Assembly (NCBI GenBank): GCA_963701855.1
Contig: CAVPBK010000004.1
Coordinates: 96,001 to 160,000 of the forward strand
From: Nitrospirota bacterium
Lineage (GTDB): Bacteria > Nitrospirota > Nitrospiria > Nitrospirales > Nitrospiraceae
Direction of reading: 5' to 3'
Length of the DNA: 64,000 bases
In this document: positions 27,958-42,434 of the stretch, piece after piece
Layout of the letters: each line of letters opens with the position of its first letter
Numbering within the stretch: position 1 is the first letter of the stretch
The notes under the pieces: model-generated
What the model saw: only the letters and a program-made list of their open reading frames with translations
Told to the model about the DNA's origin: nothing
The model's database searches: none
Program-made: the position numbers and the translations under genes

Positions 27958-28035
27958 AGCCGACATGATCGTGATGCTTGAATCGATCCGTAGGGATCAT
28001 CCTTCACGGACGATTTTCACGCAAGGAGACATCAT

Positions 28036-28482
28036 ATGCACACTTCCAAGAATGTCAAACCAGTGCAGATACTCTTAGTGGAAGACAATCCCGGCGATGT
28101 CGGTCTGACGCTTGAGGCCCTCAAAGAGGCCACTCTGCCCAACAAGCTTACGGTCGTCAAAACCGGTATAGAAGCCTTGTTGTTGTTGCGCCGGCAAGGG
28201 CAGTACGCAGGCGCTCCACGACCTGATCTCATCCTGCTCGACCTCAACCTTCCCAAGAAAGACGGACGAAAGGTGCTGGCTGAGATCAAGACCGACGAGA
28301 ATCTGAAACGCATCCCCGTAGTCATTCTCACGACGTCGGAGGATGAAAGAGACGTCTTGGAGAGCTACAACCTCCACGCGAACTGCTACATTGTCAAGCC
28401 GCTGGATTTGGACCGGTTCATCACGGTGATAAAAACGATTGAGGACTTCTGGCTCAGGATCGTGGTGCTGCCGAAGAAGTGA
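28036..28482 (+). CDS. Single-domain response regulator (Rcp1-like)
   Basis: [29 protein letters not shown]. Confidence 0.93.
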
Positions 28483-28494
28483 AAGAGCATTTGA

Positions 28495-30238
28495 CTATTT
28501 CGCCGGCTTTCGCCCGATCAGCTGGAAGGTTTTTTTGAGCAGGGCAGAGGTTTTCGGCGTTTCGAAGAGCGAACGAAAAATGTCGTGAACGAGGGTGGTA
28601 TGGCCGGCAAGATCGGCTTGAAATTGCTTCACAGCGATCGGACGATCGGCTCTGTCATAGCCCATGCGGATGGCGCAACGTTCTAATTCCATCTGCTGAT
28701 CCGGGAGCGCATGCGTCTGTAGATCGTGCACCATCTGGAGTTTGTGCTCCACGTCTCGGAGAAACTGATAGGCACGGGTCAGATCGGTCCGTTGTACTCT
28801 TGACAGAATACCGGCCCTCTGAAGCCGCACCAACGAATCGAGAGTGCCCCGGCCCAGAATTCCAGGCAGCCGCTGGCCGGCCAGCACTTGGATCGTTTGG
28901 ACGAGAAACTCGATTTCCCTGATCCCGCCGACACCGAGCTTGACGTTGCGTTGTTCATGTCCGCGCTCTGCCATCTTCGCGTCAATCCGCTCCTTGACCA
29001 ATCGGACCTCCTCCACGATCGCGAGCCCCTGTTCGACATCCGGGCGTTTCGATGAGGGCGCCAGCACAAAGGGCCGCACCATCTTGATGAACGATTTCCC
29101 GACCTCCTGCGACCCGGCGATGGGCCAGGCCTTCAGCAAGGCCAACCGTTCCCACACTTGTCCTCTCGTCCGATAGTACTTGGCATAGTCCTCAAGCGAG
29201 CGAGTGAGCTGCCCCACCGATCCCTCCGCCCGCAAACGGAGGTCCACGCGATAGACGTATCCTTCATGGGTCTGCGCGGTCAGCGCCCTCGTCAGCTCCC
29301 GCGCGAGAATTTCAAAGTATTCTTCATTGGATAACCCGCGCTGCTCAGAGCTCTGTGCCTTCCTGCGTCCGGATGCGGCCGGCCTGGTTTCTCCCTCATG
29401 GGACTCACAGACATAGAACACATCTACGTCGGAGCTGTAATTGAGCTCGTGTCCACCCAGCTTCCCCATCGCAATGACGGTGAAGCCCGTCTCCACCCAT
29501 CGCCTCTGCCGATTCTTGTGCATGGGAATGCCGTGCCGGGTCCGTAGATCGCTATCCACAATGCGATAGGCGGCATGGATAGAGACCGCGGCCAGGTCCG
29601 AGAGAGAGGCGGTTGTTTCCACCACATCGGCTAATCGGAGGAGGTCGCGCACGCCGATGCGTAACATCTCTCGACGATGGAATCGTCTGAGCGCATCCAA
29701 CTTGAGTTCCGTGGCGACGACATTCTCCAAGCTTTGCCGGATCGTGCGTTCCATCCCCGCCCTGGTCGGAGCAGTGGACAGCACATTCTGTTGGGCCAGC
29801 CAGTACAGCAGCAGGGGATCGCGGACGAGGGTAAAGGCAAGCGCGTCGCTGTTCCCAAAAATCGTGCACACCAGATCCAGCATGCGGGGAGCGCTGCGCA
29901 GGTATTCCAACACGGCCGACCGGCTGACTCCGCTTGCAAGCCAGCGTTCCCAATGATTCAACGCCTGATCGGGGTCGGCGGTCCGCCCAATGGCCTCAAG
30001 CAATGCAGGCAGGATGTCTGCCAACTGATGCCGCTGGTGTGAGTCGCCAGCCATCGACTGCAGATTCGCATCGGCATCCTGAATGCGGTGGAGTCCGTAC
30101 GGTTGAAGAATCGCTTCAAGTCGGGCCGGTTCCAGCTCAGGCGCTAAGAGGATCGGAGTCGGATCAGGACGAGCAGCCCACTCAAGCTTCGGAACGGCAC
30201 AATAGCTGCGGCACGGGCTTCTTGGGGCGAGTGGTCAT
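28495..30238 (-). CDS. glnE: GlnE-type nucleotidyltransferase, single (adenylyl-removase-like) domain; probable frameshift near the N-terminus
   Basis: AMGKLGGHELNYSSDVD, RVDLRLR.EG, WERLALLKA, NVKLGVGGIREIEF, LRDVEHKLQ. The frame stays open upstream of 30054, and the nearest ATG (30238) is out of frame. Confidence 0.85.
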
Positions 30239-30305
30239 AGGGCGGGCATTATACGCACACCTTGACGCTCGCACAACGAACCCCGCTTCGGCTATACTCC
30301 GAGCC

Positions 30306-32587
30306 ATGATGGATGGGCTTGGATCACGCGAGTCGATCATCAAGACCCTGGTGTCCCTCTGTCCTGATGTCGATGATGAGGTACTCCAGGACTTCGTGTC
30401 TCGGATGGACCCCGAGTACTTCGAGACGGTTCCAACCAGACACCATCGCACACCATATTCAGCTTGCCAGCCGGCTCACGCCGGACCATCCCTGCGAATT
30501 TTCGGTGATCGACAAACAAGCAGGGCCGATCGGAAATCAGCATCGTCGCCTACGATTACTTCTCGGAATTCGCCGCCATCTGCGGTGTGCTCTCGGCCTT
30601 CGGACTCAATATCGAAGAAGGACGGATCTATACCTTTATGGGGGCCACGCCCGCTCCCTCACCGCGCCGAAAGGCTCCCTCGACGGTCGGCAGACCTAAA
30701 GGCCGGCCCGGCCTCAGCCGCAAGAAAATCGTCGATGTCTTCCTGGTGCATCCCATAGACCGCACAGGCTTTCCCTCGCCGCAGCACAATGCCCTCAGAC
30801 AGACCGTCAGCGAGATCGTGCAACTGCTGGATGCCGGTCAGTTTGAAGAGGCGCGTCAATATGTCAACCGCCGGCTCGTCGAACGATTGGACAAGCAGCG
30901 GAGCGCCTTCACCGGCTTGCTCGATACGGTGCAGATTACCTTCGACAATCGCCAATCGCCGACAGATACGATCATGGACATCCAATCGGATGATACTCCG
31001 GCCTTCCTCTATGCGCTTGCGAATGGCTTGGCCATGCGCAACATCTACATTACCAAGGCCCAGATCGAATGCGACGGCGCCAAGCTGCACGATCGTTTCT
31101 TTGTCAGGAATCGCGATGGACAGAAACTGCTCGACTCCGCCGATCAGCAGCTACTGCGGCTGACCGCCGTGCTCATCAAACAATTCACGCATGCCTTGAC
31201 CTGGGCGTCCGACCCGGCTAAGGCACTGGCATCGTTCGACCAATTCCTGGATCTCATCGTGAAAGACCAGGGCAAGAGACGGCAAGAGCCAGGCGCTCGA
31301 CTTCATCAGCGATAAAAAAATATTTCCGTTGCTCGCGCAACTGCTCGGCGCCAGCGATTTCTTGTGGGAGGATTTTCTCCGACGCCAGCACGATAACCTC
31401 CTTCCGTTGCTCACAGAATACCGGGATGCACCCCTGATCAAACCGCAGGCAACCCTCCGAAAAGAGCTCGACCGTCTGGTCATGCGAGCCAAAACAGACG
31501 AAGCGCGAAAGGACGCGCTTGAACCGGTTTAAAGACCGTGAGATGTTCCGGATCGACATCAAACATATCGTCGAGCCCTCGAGCAATTTCCCTGACTTTT
31601 CGCTGGCGCTCACGGAACTGGCGGAAGTCATCATGGAACGGAGCATCGTAGATTGCAGCGCCAAGCTGGAGAAATCTTACGGGCGCCCACAGCTCGCCAA
31701 CAAGAAGCCCTGCCCCTTTGCCGTCCTGGGCCTGGGAAAATTCGGAGCGCGAGAGCTTGGCTATGCATCGGACATCGAGGTCCTGTTCGTCTACGGCGGA
31801 TCGGGCAGCACAAGCGGTATAGATGGAATTGAGAACAGCGAATACTTCGAGCGGCTGGCCCAGGAACTCCTGGGGTGGATCGAAGCCAAGCAAGAAGGCA
31901 TCTATCGCATTGATGTCCGGCTTCGACCGCACGGAGGCAAGGGCGCGCTGGCCAATGCGTTCGAGGAGGTCTGTCGCTACTACAGTCCAACCGGATTCGC
32001 TTGCCGCGCCGTTCGAGCGGCAAGCCCTGATCAAGTTACGGCATATCGCCGGCGATTCCGCGCTGGGGCATCAACTGGAAACACACCGAGACTCCTTCGT
32101 CTACGGAGTAGCTCCCTGGGACATTCCCGCAGCACTGGAACTCCGGAGACAACAGCTCAGACAAATGGTCGCGCCTGGAAAGGTCAACGTGAAATATAGC
32201 GCGGGAGGACTCATCGACATCGAATATGCCGCGCAATACCTGCAAGTGATGCATGGCCACAACCACCCGAGCCTCCGCACACCGAATACCCTGCAGGCAC
32301 TCGCCGCACTGGTCAATGAGGGACTGATCACACGCACCGATGGAGCAGGCCTCCGGAAAGCCTACATCTTCATCCGAATGTTGGTCAACGGATTGCGCAT
32401 GGTCAGGGGAAACACCAAGGATCTTGTGCTCCCTCCTTCCGATTCGGAAGAGTTTGTCAGTCTTGCCCGCCGCATCGGCTACACGAGAGACGATTGGCGA
32501 GCCGGCGCTCGCGATTTGCAGTCAGATATCGAGCAGCATATGACACTCACCAAGCCGTTCTTTGAGCGGACGTTCGGAGCGTTATGA
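30306..32587 (+). CDS. ACT-domain-fused GlnE adenylyltransferase-like protein (about 5 apparent frameshifts)
   Basis: Consecutive frames give ACT-like segments (AICGVLSAFGLNIEEGRI; DTPAFLYALANGLAMRNIYI...DRFFV), then GKFGARELGYASDIE, IDVRLRPHG, FERQAL, VKYSAGGLIDIEYAAQYL. Shifts near 30427, 30525, 31277, 31520 and 32000. Confidence 0.8.
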
Positions 32588-32835
32588 GGGAAGACGGCCA
32601 GGTGACCTCCTTACTCGCAGAACGCGCACGATAAGAATGTGCTCGCTTGGGGCAAGAGCGCGTCTCGGCGCGCTCGGGGTTGGGCGGGTGAGAATGCTGC
32701 GCGCAGTGAAGGGCAGCCTTGGGCCGCTCCCCTAAAGAGAGGGTGGTTAGGAGAGGAAGAAGACCTCGTTCGACGATCGCAGTGGAATCAATCTGGGTGA
32801 CATTCCCGGAAGAGTAAAACAAGCAAGCTTGGAGG
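32588..32835. repeat. Dispersed repeat, family B (inverted)
   Basis: Reverse complement contains gggagcggcc...ctgcgcgc...cgtgcgcgttctgcgagtaaggagg...ctggccgtcttccc. Confidence 0.8.
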
Positions 32836-33136
32836 GAGCATGTATAACTTCGTTAGGCCGAAGCACCTCAGCCGTTGATACAGAGATGCGCTGATTCTCT
32901 TCTCGACCATGCAGCATGAGATTGCTCCATCCTCGTCAAGCCTCACGAATGAATTTACTCCCCGTCTTGACCAAATTCTTCACGAGATGACCCCACGTGA
33001 CTCATGTTCCGCATGATCACCATGCGCTTCGAATCTTGCGATTTTTACTAATGACTACACCGGTTCAGACGTGCTCGGCGCGCTTGTATCATATCAGAAG
33101 GTCGCAAGCCCCTCTTAGCGCGCCGCTGCACCTCAT

Positions 33137-33238
33137 TCAAGAGTCACTTCTCTGCAACCATCCCCACGCCATGGCCAAGAGTCCAAGCGAAGCGAAGTAC
33201 AGCGAGCCATTGATCAACACAGCATTTATCATAGTCAT
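33137..33238 (-). CDS. Small single-TM peptide (33 aa)
   Basis: RBS AGGAGA; MTMINAVLINGSLYFASLGLLAMAWGWLQRSDS*; downstream of a sigma54-type site; paralog at 25628-25719. Confidence 0.6.
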   Translation of the reverse strand: MTMINAVLINGSLYFASLGLLAMAWGWLQRSDS

Positions 33239-33290
33239 AGTGTTTCTCCTTTCCTGAAACATTAATCATGCATTCAGCATGTCAGAAATA

Positions 33291-33305
33291 GCACAGGCCG
33301 TGCCG
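33291..33305 (-). promoter_or_regulatory. Sigma54 -24/-12 promoter
   Basis: CGGCACGGCCTGTGC (GG-N10-GC), immediately downstream of a sigma54 activator gene. Confidence 0.6.
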
Positions 33306-33494
33306 CTCTTACCCTTTTCAACCGTTTTGTCTCAAGCTATTGGAATGCTGGGTCTATTGGGGGATATCTTGAGGAGTAAATGAGGAGGACGGAGGCTTAT
33401 CCCATGATGGATCACGGCTAGTCGCGGGTCTATCTCATGATTGATCGAGGGTTGCCCCTTCTTCTGAATTCTGTGGGAAGGATATTCTGAATCT

Positions 33495-35058
33495 TCAGCT
33501 AGACTGCGGTCGAGTCATCCCAAACTGCTTCATCCGGCTGCGCAGGGTGCCGGGATTTAGCCCCAAACGTATCAGCCGCTCCATTGGGACCTTCGATGCG
33601 CCAATTCGTCAGTGTGAGAGTCTGCAGAATATGCTGGCGTTCGAGTTCTTTGAGGTCGGCTGATAGCGGCGCTGTGAAGGATGAGTCCTGCGAACCTAAG
33701 ACATGTTCGTCGATTCGCAATACCGGCTCACGAGAGAGAATCATCGCTCGTTCAATCACATTTTCCAGCTCACGGACGTTGCCAGGCCAGGTGTAGCGAA
33801 TCAACCGTTCTAGAGATTCCTGGTCGATATCCTTGCACGAACGTCCGAGTTTCACGCAATATTGTTTCAGGAAATGTCGAGCCAATATGGGGATATCCTC
33901 CGGGCGATTCCTAAGTGGAGGCACGGCGATTGGAAAGATATTCAGACGATAAAATAGATCGGCGCGGAACGTACCGTCTTTGACGGCGGCAGGCAAGTTG
34001 CGATTGGTGGCGGCTATCACACGAACATCTACACGAATGGGCTGTTTCCCACCCAGACGATCAATCAGGCCATCTTGCAAGACTCGTAACAACTTGGCCT
34101 GTGTCTCCAAAGGCATTTCACCAATTTCATCCAAGAAGAGGGTTCCACCATGGGCCAGCTCAAATCGGCCTTCGCGTGCGCGGTCAGCCCCGGTGAACGC
34201 GCCTCGTTCATGGCCAAACAATTCACTTTCGACCAACCCGGCCGGAAAGGCGGCACAATTGACACAAACCATGGGTTTCGAGTGCCGCGGGCTCCAATCA
34301 TGGATCGCCTGAGCAATCAGTTCCTTGCCAGTTCCTGTTTCACCCGTAATGAACACGGTCGATGGGGTGGGCGCCACGTCGCGTGCAAGACCTATCACAT
34401 GCCGAAAGGCAAGGCTCTTCCCCACCAACGAGCCTATGTCCTTCGTGAGCTTCAGTTCTTCGGTGAGGTAGACGTTTTCCTTGGCAAGCTGGTCTCGCAA
34501 TCGATCGATCTGTTCGTATGCTTGGACATGATCGATCGCATAAGCGATCTGCATCGCCACTTGCGTCAAAAACTCAAGATCCCCTGGATCAGGAGCGCCC
34601 GACTCGATACTGCCGATATTCAGAATGCCTATACATCTGTCTCTCACGAGAAGAGGCAGATTGATCATTCGTCCGAGGCCTTCTTGGACATACCATTCGT
34701 CTTCGAGGAAGACTTGATCCCGCTTCAAGTCAGGACGGATGTGTACAGTTTTATGATCGTAAACCCAACCCATGCCGCTTCCAACATGTGGAACAATGGC
34801 ATTGCGTTGTAGCACCACCTGCGCCATCGTCGTTGCCATGACATAAAACATGAACCCGTCGGCCTCACGATCGTACTGTGTGACAGACGCCCGTGCCCAT
34901 GGAATGACCTTAGTAATCTCGGCGGTAATCGCCTCCCAGAGGCTGTGCATATCACGTTGCGAATTGAGCACAACAGCGACAGCCAAGAGGGCTCGATAGT
35001 TTATTTCAATCCGGTCCATAGGCTTGTCAATATTCTCTGATCGAACAAATTCAATCAC
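33495..35058 (-). CDS. GAF-domain sigma54-dependent enhancer-binding protein (FhlA/HyfR-like); 1-nt frameshift in the HTH at ~33570
   Basis: GETGTGKE, GAFTGA, FLDEIGE, WPGNVRELEN. The shifted frame restores HTH 'RLGLNPGTLRSRMKQFG'. Confidence 0.92.
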
Positions 35059-35213
35059 AGCGCCTGTCCTGATGTCTATGCCGTCATTTGCGAAAGCTCA
35101 ATCACCCATTACCGTCCCTAATTTGCTTGTTCGATACCATATTCGAACAAGCAAATCAGGAGAGAGAAATGATCTTGCAATCCAACACCAAGAGTTTCAC
35201 GGAACGGAGGTCG

Positions 35214-35654
35214 TTACTCAATCCAGATCAGATTGAGAGCAAGCGATTCTGCGGCATCCCGCTGTCTGACATCGGCGGTGACGAAGGGAATGGTTAGGCC
35301 TGAGGCAGCTTGGAATGTGAGTGCCGATGCGACATGCAAGGCATCAAGGGTTCTGAGCCCTATTCTCTGGACTAGCTCTTCGGCTTGGCTCAGCACGATC
35401 GGCCCCACTTCGACCAGCTCCCAGTAATCCCTGTCTTTGTGAAGTCTCGACCGGATGGCTAGAAAATCCCGCTGGGTTATCTCGCCGGTTGTCCGTCTGC
35501 GGCTGAGTGCGGATAGGGCTTCGACCGGAGCCAGGGCAGAAGTAAGAAACTGGTACCGTTGGAGTAGTTTTCTCGACGCAGATGACCCAGCCTCTTTCAC
35601 GTATCGTTTCACTAATACGCTGGTGTCGAAATAGGCCCAGCGGGCCGCCGTCAA
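35214..35654 (-). CDS. vapC: VapC PIN-domain toxin
   Basis: YFDTSVLVKRYV.E.GS, LRTLDALHVASA, FVTAD.RQ. Confidence 0.9.
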   Translation of the reverse strand: MTAARWAYFDTSVLVKRYVKEAGSSASRKLLQRYQFLTSALAPVEALSALSRRRTTGEITQRDFLAIRSRLHKDRDYWELVEVGPIVLSQAEELVQRIGLRTLDALHVASALTFQAASGLTIPFVTADVRQRDAAESLALNLIWIE

Positions 35655-35929
35655 CGGTCGCCCCTTTCCTCACAAACCGTCTGAGAGACCGGCATGCCAC
35701 GCACCGATCGAGGCCCCCACGAAGGGAGGGCGCCGCGCCTGGCTGCGGGACGCAAGAACCCAGCGGTTTCGAGTCTCTGAATGATGGATTCCGTCTCGTC
35801 GCCGCCACGAATGGGTTTCACCACAGCCAGCGGTCTTCCCCGCTCTGTCAACAATACTTCCTTCCCTCCTCGGACCGCCTTCATGAGCCGAGAGAACTGC
35901 TGGTTGGCTTCACGTAAACCGATCTGCAT
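35651..35929 (-). CDS. Phd/YefM-family antitoxin
   Basis: IGLREANQQFSRLM..V..G.EVLLTERGRPLAVV.P; overlaps the toxin start. Confidence 0.9.
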   Translation of the reverse strand: MQIGLREANQQFSRLMKAVRGGKEVLLTERGRPLAVVKPIRGGDETESIIQRLETAGFLRPAARRGALPSWGPRSVRGMPVSQTVCEERGDR

Positions 35930-35947
35930 AGACCCACCTCCTAGAAT

Positions 35948-35991
35948 GTAGTGACATCACTACTATAAATCCACCGCGGAGGCTCTGTCAA
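35948..35991 (-). promoter_or_regulatory. TA promoter (TTGACA-N18-TATAGT) with operator palindrome GTAGTGAcaTCACTAC
   Basis: The palindrome at 35948-35963 overlaps the -10/TSS region upstream of the antitoxin. Confidence 0.65.
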
Positions 35992-36055
35992 ATTCTCATT
36001 CGTCAGGAAGAGCCCCGAGTGCTAACCTGGAGGGATTTCACAAGCGAGAAATACA

Positions 36056-36093
36056 ACGGCGTCCGTCTCCTAATTATGGAAGACAGACGCCGT
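36056..36093 (-). terminator. Probable terminator downstream of glnA
   Basis: Imperfect stem acggcgtc.gtct.cc / gg.agac.gacgccgt with a T-rich tail on the minus strand. Confidence 0.5.
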
Positions 36094-36199
36094 ATTCTCA
36101 TTTACCTATGTCGAGAACCTTACTGAGTCGGGGGAGGCGCAGAACAGACGAGAAACGCGCTTTTCCGAGCCAGTCTCGTCCTTCTCGATTGAGCGAAAT

Positions 36200-37610
36200 C
36201 TACACATCGTAATAGAGGACATACTCGTACGGATGCGGCCGCAACCGCATAGGATCGACTTCCTTTTTGCGTTTGTAGCTGATCCAGGCTTCAATCAGGT
36301 CCTTACTGAAGACCCCGCCCTTGAGCAGAAACTGGTGGTCCTGTTCGAGGTTGCTCAATGCTTCGTCGAGGCTACCCGGCATCGTGCGAATCGCCGCCGC
36401 TTCCTCCGGCTCGAGATCGTACAGATCCTTTTCAGCCGGCTCACCTGGATTGATCTTGTTCTCGATCCCGTCCAACCCTGCCATGAGCATGGCGGAAAAT
36501 GCGAGGTACGGGTTCGCGGTCGGGTCGGGAAAGCGCACCTCGATCCGTTTGGCTTTCGGGCTTGGTGAGTACATGGGAATCCGGACGCCTGCCGACCGAT
36601 TCCTGCTGGAATAGGCCAGCAGGACCGGCGCCTCGATACCCGGGTGTGAGCCGCTTGTAGGAATTTGTCGTCGGATTCGTAAACGCCGCCAGCGCCGGAG
36701 CATGTTTCAGGATGCCTCCGATATAGTAGAGACAGAGTTGCGAGATGCCGGCATATTCCTTCCCCGCAAATAGGGGCTTCCCATCTTTCCAGATGCTTTG
36801 ATGCGTATGCATGCCGGTCCCGTTGTCCCCAAAGATCGGCTTGGGCATGAAGGTCGCAGTTTTGCCATGGCGGCGGGCCACGTTCTTGACGATGTACTTG
36901 TACATCATCAATTGATCTGCTGTTTTGACCAGCGACCCAAATCGGATATCGATTTCCGCCTGGCCTGCCGTCGCCGTCTCGTGGTGATGTTTCTCAACGG
37001 AAATCCCGACCTTTTGCATCTCCAGGACCATCTCGCTGCGGATATCCTGTTGCGTATCGGTTGGCGGGACCGGAAAGTAGCCTTCCTTGTGACGGATTTT
37101 CCCGCCCAAGTTGTGGCCTTCCTGCCCGATGTTCCAAGCGCCTTCTTCGGAATCGATGAAGTAGTAGCCGCTGTGGCCCGTCTGATCGTACCGGACATGA
37201 TCGAAGATGAAGAACTCCGCCTCCGGACCCCAGTAGGAAGTATCGCCGATCTTCGTGCTCTGGAGATATTTTTCCGCCTTCTGCGCCACAAACCGCGAAT
37301 CACGATCATAGGGCTCTCGCGTAATCGGATCGACAATGTTACCGACGAGGCTCAGTGTCGGAACCGCACAGAACGGATCGAGACAGACCGCGGACGAATC
37401 GGGGATCATCAGCAGATCGCTGTCGTTGATGGCTTTCCAGCCCCGGATTGATGAACCGTCCAACCCGGACCCATCCTTGAACAGCCCTTCAGTCAGCTCT
37501 TCCACGGGAATCGAGAAGTGCTGCCAGGTGCCGATCAGGTCCACAAACTTCAAGTCCACCATCTGGACTTTATGCTTCTTCGCAAACTCCAATACCTCGC
37601 GGGGATTCAT
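36200..37610 (-). CDS. glnA: Type I glutamine synthetase (apparent 1-nt frameshift at ~36635)
   Basis: [50 protein letters not shown], adenylylation site DLYDL. Confidence 0.97.
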
Positions 37611-37634: not shown

Positions 37635-42201
<4,567 letters not shown>

Positions 42202-42434
42202 ATTTGCATCCTTTCATCCCTTGGTTCAGGACGAGGTTGACTATACGTTCGTTGAATTGTTCTAAGCGGCCCCCCTGGTTGACTCACGCTCCCTCTTCGT
42301 CGGGTTAGGGCTGTGGCGCGCGCTGGCTCAGCCCCTCATAGTTTTGTTGTGCCAAAAATTATCGCTTTCAATCCCGTCATGGTCTACCGACTGCGCATCG
42401 GCGCGGCACAGTTGCTGGCTCATTTCGTGACGGA

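Follow-up and report, generated by a model that had tools for sequence, protein, structure and literature searches.

How is glutamine synthetase (GS) controlled in a bacterium whose GlnE, in textbooks one protein with two opposed activities in a balance set by PII, PII-UMP and glutamine, appears to be encoded in two pieces? This question is raised by a locus in a Nitrospirota bacterium of the family Nitrospiraceae (assembly GCA_963701855.1; 4.3 Mb in 15 contigs), for which an earlier note, made from the letters of the DNA alone, had claimed that GlnE is split into two separate, divergently transcribed genes. Here, we analysed a stretch of 64,000 nucleotides (nt) of contig CAVPBK010000004.1 (positions 96,001 to 160,000; hereafter 'the window'), to which all coordinates refer. 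The split proved to be genuine: the locus is a two-gene GlnE, consisting of two back-to-back single-module genes, one of which is joined to a GlnD-like ACT sensor. According to Pfam, both genes carry exactly one module composed of PF03710 and PF08335, and a search of the genome yielded no further GlnE-type gene besides the pair and glnD. The third PF03710 match in the genome is the true glnD, which is located 5 kb from the pair. We favour a reading, which we consider rather probable, in which the minus-strand gene encodes the adenylyl-removing (AR) half of the system and the plus-strand gene an ACT-bearing adenylyltransferase (AT) half, while the insertions that break the reading frames of this copy are assembly errors.

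The minus-strand gene (28495..30238, minus strand; approximately 580 aa) encodes a stand-alone GlnE module, which by its sequence is of the N-half, i.e. AR, type. As assembled, only an open reading frame (ORF) of 519 aa at 28495-30054 is visible. In this ORF, PF03710 (GlnE) matches residues 62-323 of 519 (E 9.3e-60, 202.6 bits, cut-off 24), accompanied by a match of PF08335 (GlnD_UR_UTase; E 2.4e-28, 99.4 bits, cut-off 21), and Pfam detected no second GlnE module in the gene. The nucleotidyltransferase (NT) motif is GKLGGHELNYSSDVDV, which has the form GKLGG...SDVD. Among the NCBIfam models, the best matching stretch covers positions 89-444 of the 946 positions of PRK11072 with 396.9 bits, below the cut-off of 487. 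The apparent start at 30054 is an artefact, since an extra T at 30207, around ten codons after the start and missing in 8/8 aligned relatives, throws the first ~10 codons out of frame; the gene actually begins with the ATG at 30238, the CAT of which is kept in 8/8 aligned relatives. Between 28637 and 28657, the gene also differs from the related genome G015 by a 4-nt insertion and a 4-nt deletion located 20 nt apart, which compensate each other so that the frame is retained.

The plus-strand gene (30306..32587, plus strand) encodes an ACT-ACT-GlnE-module protein of 757 aa in intact orthologs and is interrupted by five insertions in this assembly; we thus used an intact ortholog (L002:1285-3555, 757 aa) for the domain analysis. 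ACT-like domain 1 (30490..30832, plus strand; coordinates converted from the ortholog with the insertions allowed for) corresponds to ortholog residues ~62-175 and contains a disordered insert at residues 110-139, ACT-like domain 2 (30923..31195, plus strand) corresponds to residues ~206-296, and the GlnE nucleotidyltransferase module, a member of an ACT-linked clade described below, occupies 31332..32572 (plus strand; PF03710 at residues 342-589, PF08335 at 620-753). Following the hidden Markov model searches that the earlier note had proposed, GlnE (146.4 bits, cut-off 24), GlnD_UR_UTase (58.4 bits, cut-off 21) and the ACT-like family PF24931 (31.3 bits, cut-off 27, residues 209-284, i.e. 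the second ACT domain) were all found above cut-off in the ortholog, whereas PF01842 reached only 15.4 bits and stayed below its cut-off of 27. The gene fragments of the assembly itself gave matches to PF24931 (29.9 bits, cut-off 27), GlnE (E 4.5e-32) and GlnD_UR_UTase (E 3.4e-17) as well.

The two ACT-like segments that had been noticed in front of the module are supported both by an alignment to GlnD and by fold comparisons. The N-terminal 290 aa of the ortholog align to the ACT region of GlnD (TIGR01693 positions 613-842 of 850, E 2.9e-23). AlphaFold modelled the whole ortholog with a mean predicted local distance difference test score (pLDDT) of 86.2 and a predicted template modelling score (pTM) of 0.80, and residues 1-300 with a pLDDT of 81.6 and a pTM of 0.81; in the models, the N-terminus of the plus protein is predicted to be a four-helix head followed by two ACT-like domains. 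A fold search with this part retrieved tandem-ACT regulators, namely the aspartate kinase 3l76 (Z 10.6, 155 residues aligned, model residues 70-296), the regulatory domain of threonine dehydratase (9d2s, Z 8.8) and CASTOR1/2 (Z ~6), which resemble the model over residues ~62-296 in fold. The identity between these regulators and the ACT pair of the plus protein is only 9-14%, and ACT1 of the latter is distinguished by its disordered insert of ~30 residues. Single ACT-like domains match the N-terminal model with root-mean-square deviations of 1.9-2.2, for example the GL3 ACT-like domain (9c7n; model residues 63-172, Z 6.6, deviation 1.9, 79 residues aligned). The model of the catalytic part resembles both domain structures of E. 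coli GlnE, with target-normalised template modelling scores of 0.82 for the N-terminal domain (1v4a) and 0.75 for the C-terminal adenylylation domain (3k7d).

Is such an arrangement a peculiarity of one draft genome? A search with the ACT region gave strong matches (E <= 6.6e-41) in 30/40 relatives, in none of which a stop codon lies within the match, and the open frames around these matches reach 809 aa. Within the genus, 21/24 genomes have a strong match, and the remaining three genomes are only 71-82% complete. The AR-type gene is present in relatives with open frames of 540-620 aa. Checking synteny, as had been suggested in the earlier note, we found the AR-type and the ACT-module gene adjacent, divergent and intact in 12/12 loci from 12 genomes of four families. 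The conserved divergent pair with an ACT-linked module is real. In an even draw of 201 genomes from the phylum, 42 have the ACT region; broken down by family, it occurs in 28/28, 11/12, 1/2 and 1/1 genomes of four families, as stand-alone frames of 654-954 aa, and in 0/157 genomes of the other 22 families in the same draw, most of which have an ordinary two-module GlnE of ~1040 aa. In the named NCBI records that we saw, the ACT-module gene is annotated as 'hypothetical protein'. Two relatives showed individual irregularities: in G003, the ACT-module gene (G003:C4:92739-93495) is split over two frames with open frames of 255 and 608 aa, and G018 contains two copies (G018:C1:7526-8281 and G018:C19:106829-107581; 95% and 91% identity to the query), the duplicate possibly reflecting a strain mixture given the 7% contamination of this genome.

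Outside the phylum survey, a search of 1.84 billion representative proteins with the ACT-module unit yielded 10,521 hits at E <= 0.001. The ACT region was found in 145 of the 150 best-scoring representatives, and 111 of these 145 are fused two-module forms. The layouts in this set are ACT-NT-NT (63, plus six variants), NT-ACT-NT (40, plus two) and stand-alone ACT-NT (30, plus three); the remaining six are fragments or two-module forms in which the ACT profile found nothing. In the fused ACT-bearing GlnEs (~1150-1300 aa), the ACT-plus-module unit can be aligned over its full length to that of the plus gene with 31-40% identity. They differ from the pair in having the AR-type partner in the same chain, where it forms a subclade of its own, while the Nitrospira-type AR gene groups elsewhere.

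We then asked which half of GlnE each gene corresponds to. Reference modules were cut from 30 two-module GlnEs, several of which are named 'bifunctional ...' in NCBI, and from E. coli GlnE. A first tree of 88 rows separated the N halves and the minus family from the C halves and the plus family (Shimodaira-Hasegawa-like approximate likelihood ratio test (SH-aLRT) 99). A more careful, unrooted tree of 100 rows, to which 12 ACT-NT-NT, 12 NT-ACT-NT and 10 stand-alone proteins were added (support given as ultrafast bootstrap/SH-aLRT), resolved one group of 39 rows that unites the plus family with all ACT-adjacent modules (100/100), a second with 15/16 canonical C halves (93/72) and an N-type side (85/96), where the minus family and the partner modules from the fused proteins accompany the canonical N halves. 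In all of the 24 fused proteins sampled, the ACT-adjacent module falls in the clade of the plus family and its partner on the N-type side. The minus family and 15/16 canonical N halves form a clade with 100/99 support, the quick trees having united N halves and minus family at 99. This agrees with the earlier observation that the minus-strand gene shows AR-type motifs only. Within the clade, the minus family is sister to P0121 (99/94) and apart from the AR-type partners of the ACT-bearing fused GlnEs, a placement in the tree that may point to the pair being of mixed origin, with the N half retained and the C half replaced.

Half-specific profiles pointed in the same direction. All 13 members of the minus family scored higher on the N-half profile (median 547 versus 456 bits), while 13/13 members of the plus family and 34/34 ACT-adjacent modules scored higher on the C-half profile (median difference +22 to +47 bits, depending on the group); the 'other' modules of the fused proteins were ambiguous, 9/24 scoring higher on C. 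The motif contrasts on which the earlier note had relied (ELN/ELGY, WER.AL/ERQAL and GGIREIEF/GGxxDIE) hold against 31 two-module GlnEs. ELGY, ERQAL and GG-x-x-DIE..QYLQ are common to the plus family and the C halves, and the Arg of GG[IL]R[DE] is lost in C halves and ACT-linked modules but kept in GlnD and the N-type modules. The claim that the plus module is AT-type hence stood in part: the module is not N-type and prefers the C-half profile throughout, but it belongs to a third clade outside the canonical C halves. None of the three outcomes that had been named as speaking against a split (both modules clustering with the same half, the lack of a predicted ACT fold, or a plus gene that is a true pseudogene in polished assemblies) was observed.

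Several observations weigh against calling the plus protein an adenylyltransferase. The unrooted tree places the N-type modules, the canonical C halves and the ACT-linked modules in three clades, from which an AT role does not follow. The only experimentally characterised anchors, the two halves of E. coli GlnE, were placed as expected in the quick trees but sit on long branches and wander weakly in the careful one. When rooted with GlnD, the tree has its root on the stem of the ACT-linked modules (support 80, with a long-branch warning), a result that we did not rely on. The D of GGxxD, one of the 'AT-type' residues, is also present in GlnD and in the N-type partners of the fused proteins and appears from the alignment to be ancestral, and K-x-S-P-GG is common to ACT-linked modules and GlnD but not to the C halves. 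The NT motif of the plus gene reads SDIE (31768-31779, with D-I-E at 31771-31779) rather than SDID, as had been noticed before, and all family rows shown have the form GKFG(A/G)...SD(I/L)E, so that by alignment the second catalytic Asp is a Glu across the whole plus family. D-x-E is an allowed variant of the polymerase-beta-type motif. Finally, the plus ortholog has its best matches in NCBIfam and PDB, by a narrow margin, to the N half (109.7 versus 106 bits). We rejected the NCBIfam stretch and PDB scores as a test of AR versus AT because their margin is trivial and contradicted by the half-specific profiles.

Why, then, should the plus protein be the adenylyltransferase? The assignment draws chiefly on complementarity: the ACT-linked module always accompanies an AR-type module or is fused to one, and this genome offers no other candidate partner for the AR gene, which together suggest an AT role. 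A variant of this reading, to which we give only tentative credence, regards the ACT-linked module as an independent and ancient GS-modifying lineage that reads glutamine directly through its GlnD-type ACT pair. In the Nitrospira types, it would have taken the place of the C half of an ordinary GlnE, the N half of which lives on as a gene of its own; the 'off' and 'on' reactions of GS would then be expressed and regulated apart from each other, and the 'off' switch would be independent of PII.

Alternatively, the ACT-linked module might be no GS adenylyltransferase at all but an older GlnD-like lineage with another target (e.g. PII) or a sensor subunit, in which case GS adenylylation would be brought about in another way or be absent. 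The root on the ACT-linked stem, the K-x-S-P-GG motif and ACT pair shared with GlnD, and the replacement of D-x-D by D-x-E would fit such a protein, as would scores far below the NCBIfam cut-offs for GlnE (197.9 versus 625 for PRK14109; 191.1 versus 487 for PRK11072). We nevertheless consider it improbable, as the module is invariably paired with an N-type GlnE module or joined to one in the same chain, and an AR enzyme would be pointless without an AT enzyme, for which the genome has no other candidate module. Moreover, a complete glnD is already present, the fold and length of the module match those of GlnE halves, and D-x-E is tolerated in motifs of the polymerase-beta type.

The second question concerns the state of this particular copy. 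Along 30306-32587, the frame of the plus gene runs through the order F0>F1>F2>F0>F1>F2, corresponding to five changes of +1 each. They are caused by a G at 30425 and one C of the CC at 30526..30527 (both in this assembly only), a G at 31278, which lies in the same context as the first (GA-ACGG to GAGACGG), a G at 31517 and the four nucleotides TTCG at 31996..31999. Together with the extra T at 30207 in the minus gene, the pair has six breaks. All five insertions of the plus gene are missing from 6/6 aligned relatives, and metagenome contigs from four runs lack them wherever a site is covered; these contigs stem from relatives that are 90-99% alike rather than from the source sample, with at most 0.27 of the sampled words present in any run. 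Without the insertions, the gene encodes 757 aa with no internal stop and differs by 4 singleton residue changes, compared to 3-20 in eight relatives, so that there is no sign of relaxed selection. Frame breaks are common in the window: 8/48 ORF proxies from a relative match at least two frames here, among them glnA, in which one extra G at 36635 turns CCTC-ATACC into CCTCGATACC, whereas G015 lacks this G. On these grounds, we regard the six breaks in the pair as very probably errors in the consensus sequence of an indel-prone assembly rather than signs of pseudogenisation.

Two facts sit uneasily with this explanation. Five insertions in 2.3 kb far exceed the window background of ~7 breaks in 58 kb, and the pair has extra bases at all six of its breaks, while deletions predominate among the isolated indels in the rest of the window. 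The insertions might hence be real, and the strain might very recently have inactivated both GlnE halves and freed its GS from adenylylation control. The clustering of the six insertions within 30207-31999, with two more just outside (30242 and 32594), against a background mostly of the deletion type, would support such an event. It is also conceivable that the GlnE system can be lost, as one study (PMC9239080) reports freshwater Nitrospira genomes without any glnE and treats the gene there simply as present or absent. We consider a real inactivation unlikely, though: once the insertions are dropped, neither a stop codon nor a surplus of amino acid changes remains, glnA and several other conserved genes of the window carry single-base breaks too, which points to assembly quality, and two insertions share the unusual GA-ACGG to GAGACGG context, as expected of a systematic error. 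Besides, bacterial gene decay usually favours deletions. This window's copy of the pair is thus damaged, most likely as an assembly artefact, and for this assembly the frame breaks seen in the pair, like the one in glnA, are no grounds for inferring gene loss.

Further single-base breaks relative to G015 were seen at ~1160, 9935, 12709, 45064 and 52082, in genes that are otherwise 95-98% identical; these scattered breaks are mostly 1-nt deletions, some of them within C-runs. The insertion at 32594 gives AGACGG and, together with those at 30425 and 31278, may reflect a systematic base-calling context.

The weakest alternatives can be dealt with briefly. A reversal of roles, with the ACT-linked protein removing AMP and the N-type protein adding it, could draw on the ambiguous profile scores of the 'other' modules in fused proteins but is highly improbable, as the minus family nests among the canonical N halves and the E. 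coli N half is deadenylylating according to the deposit titles of 1v4a and 3k7d and the RefSeq product name. Programmed frameshifting or an alternative genetic code was rejected, as no slippery motif is common to the break sites and the frame is plainly open in relatives with 90-95% identity.

The two genes are separated by a divergent intergenic spacer (30239..30305), which measures 67 bp between the two start codons once the true minus start is used, close to the ~70 bp estimated before. It contains one -10-like hexamer for each gene (plus gene: TATACT, 30294-30299; minus gene: TATAAT, 30248-30253 on the minus strand); both are kept in nine sequences, at a distance of 6-9 nt from the respective start codon. 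An obvious Shine-Dalgarno sequence is missing from both genes. A scan of the spacer for consensus promoters and terminators returned 0 sites. From their position, the hexamers may be promoters of leaderless divergent transcripts.

Past the pair, a minus-strand series of nitrogen-control genes follows. It comprises a GAF-domain sigma-54 activator (33499..35058), glnA for a type I GS (GSI; 36200..37610, in two overlapping ORFs as a result of the extra G at 36635), glnD for a true PII uridylyltransferase (37635..40388; TIGR01693 654.6 bits versus a cut-off of 519.4, also recognised by Pfam), a PII gene of the glnB/glnK type (40406..40723; PF00543, E 1.4e-31) and an ammonium transporter gene of the amtB type (40828..42213), all on the minus strand. 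The distance from glnA to the stop of the plus gene is 3.6 kb, where ~4 kb had been stated. The adenylylation-loop Tyr of glnA, which had been described as kept, is encoded at 36419-36421 and aligns with Tyr398 of E. coli (KNLYDLPPEE); a GSI target with the adenylylation Tyr is hence present. Contig C9 carries another GS-like gene (C9:431915-432829). Upstream of the pair, a Cache-domain histidine kinase and a response regulator are encoded.

Directly after the stop of the plus gene, at 32595-32645, we noticed a dispersed repeat of ~50 nt. The genome carries it at least 41 times, in either orientation, which accounts for the depth spike of the metagenome contigs. The repeat gave no Rfam match and no folding signal (z = +1.25). 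Rfam returned 0 matches over 28000-36500, and a tRNA scan over 32400-33600 found 0 genes.

How does the pair compare with known systems? Bifunctional E. coli GlnE (946 aa) is built from the same PF03710 plus PF08335 module with the same fold, presumably acts on the same GSI Tyr and keeps the same company of glnA, glnD and PII. It differs in that both modules are in one chain instead of one per gene and that it lacks the ~300-aa region with head and two ACT-like domains of the plus protein, the module of which forms a separate clade with a D-x-E motif. Since both proteins score below the NCBIfam cut-offs and have a single module each, neither is an equivalog of bifunctional GlnE. The C-terminal ACT-ACT region of GlnD (TIGR01693) aligns with the N-terminus of the plus protein, and the NT domain of GlnD is distantly homologous; in the plus protein, however, the ACT pair precedes the NT module instead of following it, and the NT module is GlnE-type. 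Pfam listed no HD domain in the plus ortholog, and TIGR01693 matched it with 82 bits, below the cut-off of 519.4, with the ACT region alone aligning. By these sequence criteria, the plus protein is not a GlnD. The literature search results contained no account of a split or ACT-bearing GlnE; a 2026 preprint reports that the GlnE of Herbaspirillum senses glutamine directly.

Taken as a two-gene GlnE, the locus suggests the following scheme. Gene structures, domain folds, clade memberships and the conservation of the pair were established here, whereas we infer the assignment of reactions, ligand and PII inputs. Both genes would be expressed divergently from the 67-bp spacer. The plus protein, fronted by its helical head and GlnD-type ACT pair, would be the adenylylating half and the minus protein the adenylyl-removing half. 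At high levels of glutamine (or another amino acid), binding of the ligand to the ACT pair would trigger the transfer of AMP to the conserved Tyr in GlnA, and under nitrogen limitation the separate AR protein would strip the AMP by phosphorolysis. This latter step is probably still under the control of PII-UMP, given the presence of glnD and a PII gene. As these two genes adjoin the locus, direct sensing of an amino acid may supplement the PII route and does not have to displace it.

If this holds true, the two opposed activities of GlnE would reside in separate proteins. Either reaction could then be examined on its own, together with its signals, and the presence of the sensor domains of GlnD on the adenylylating protein would offer a way to test whether ACT domains are a glutamine sensor. 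Nitrite-oxidising Nitrospira are central to nitrification, and it is in these bacteria and their relatives that the two-gene design is the rule.

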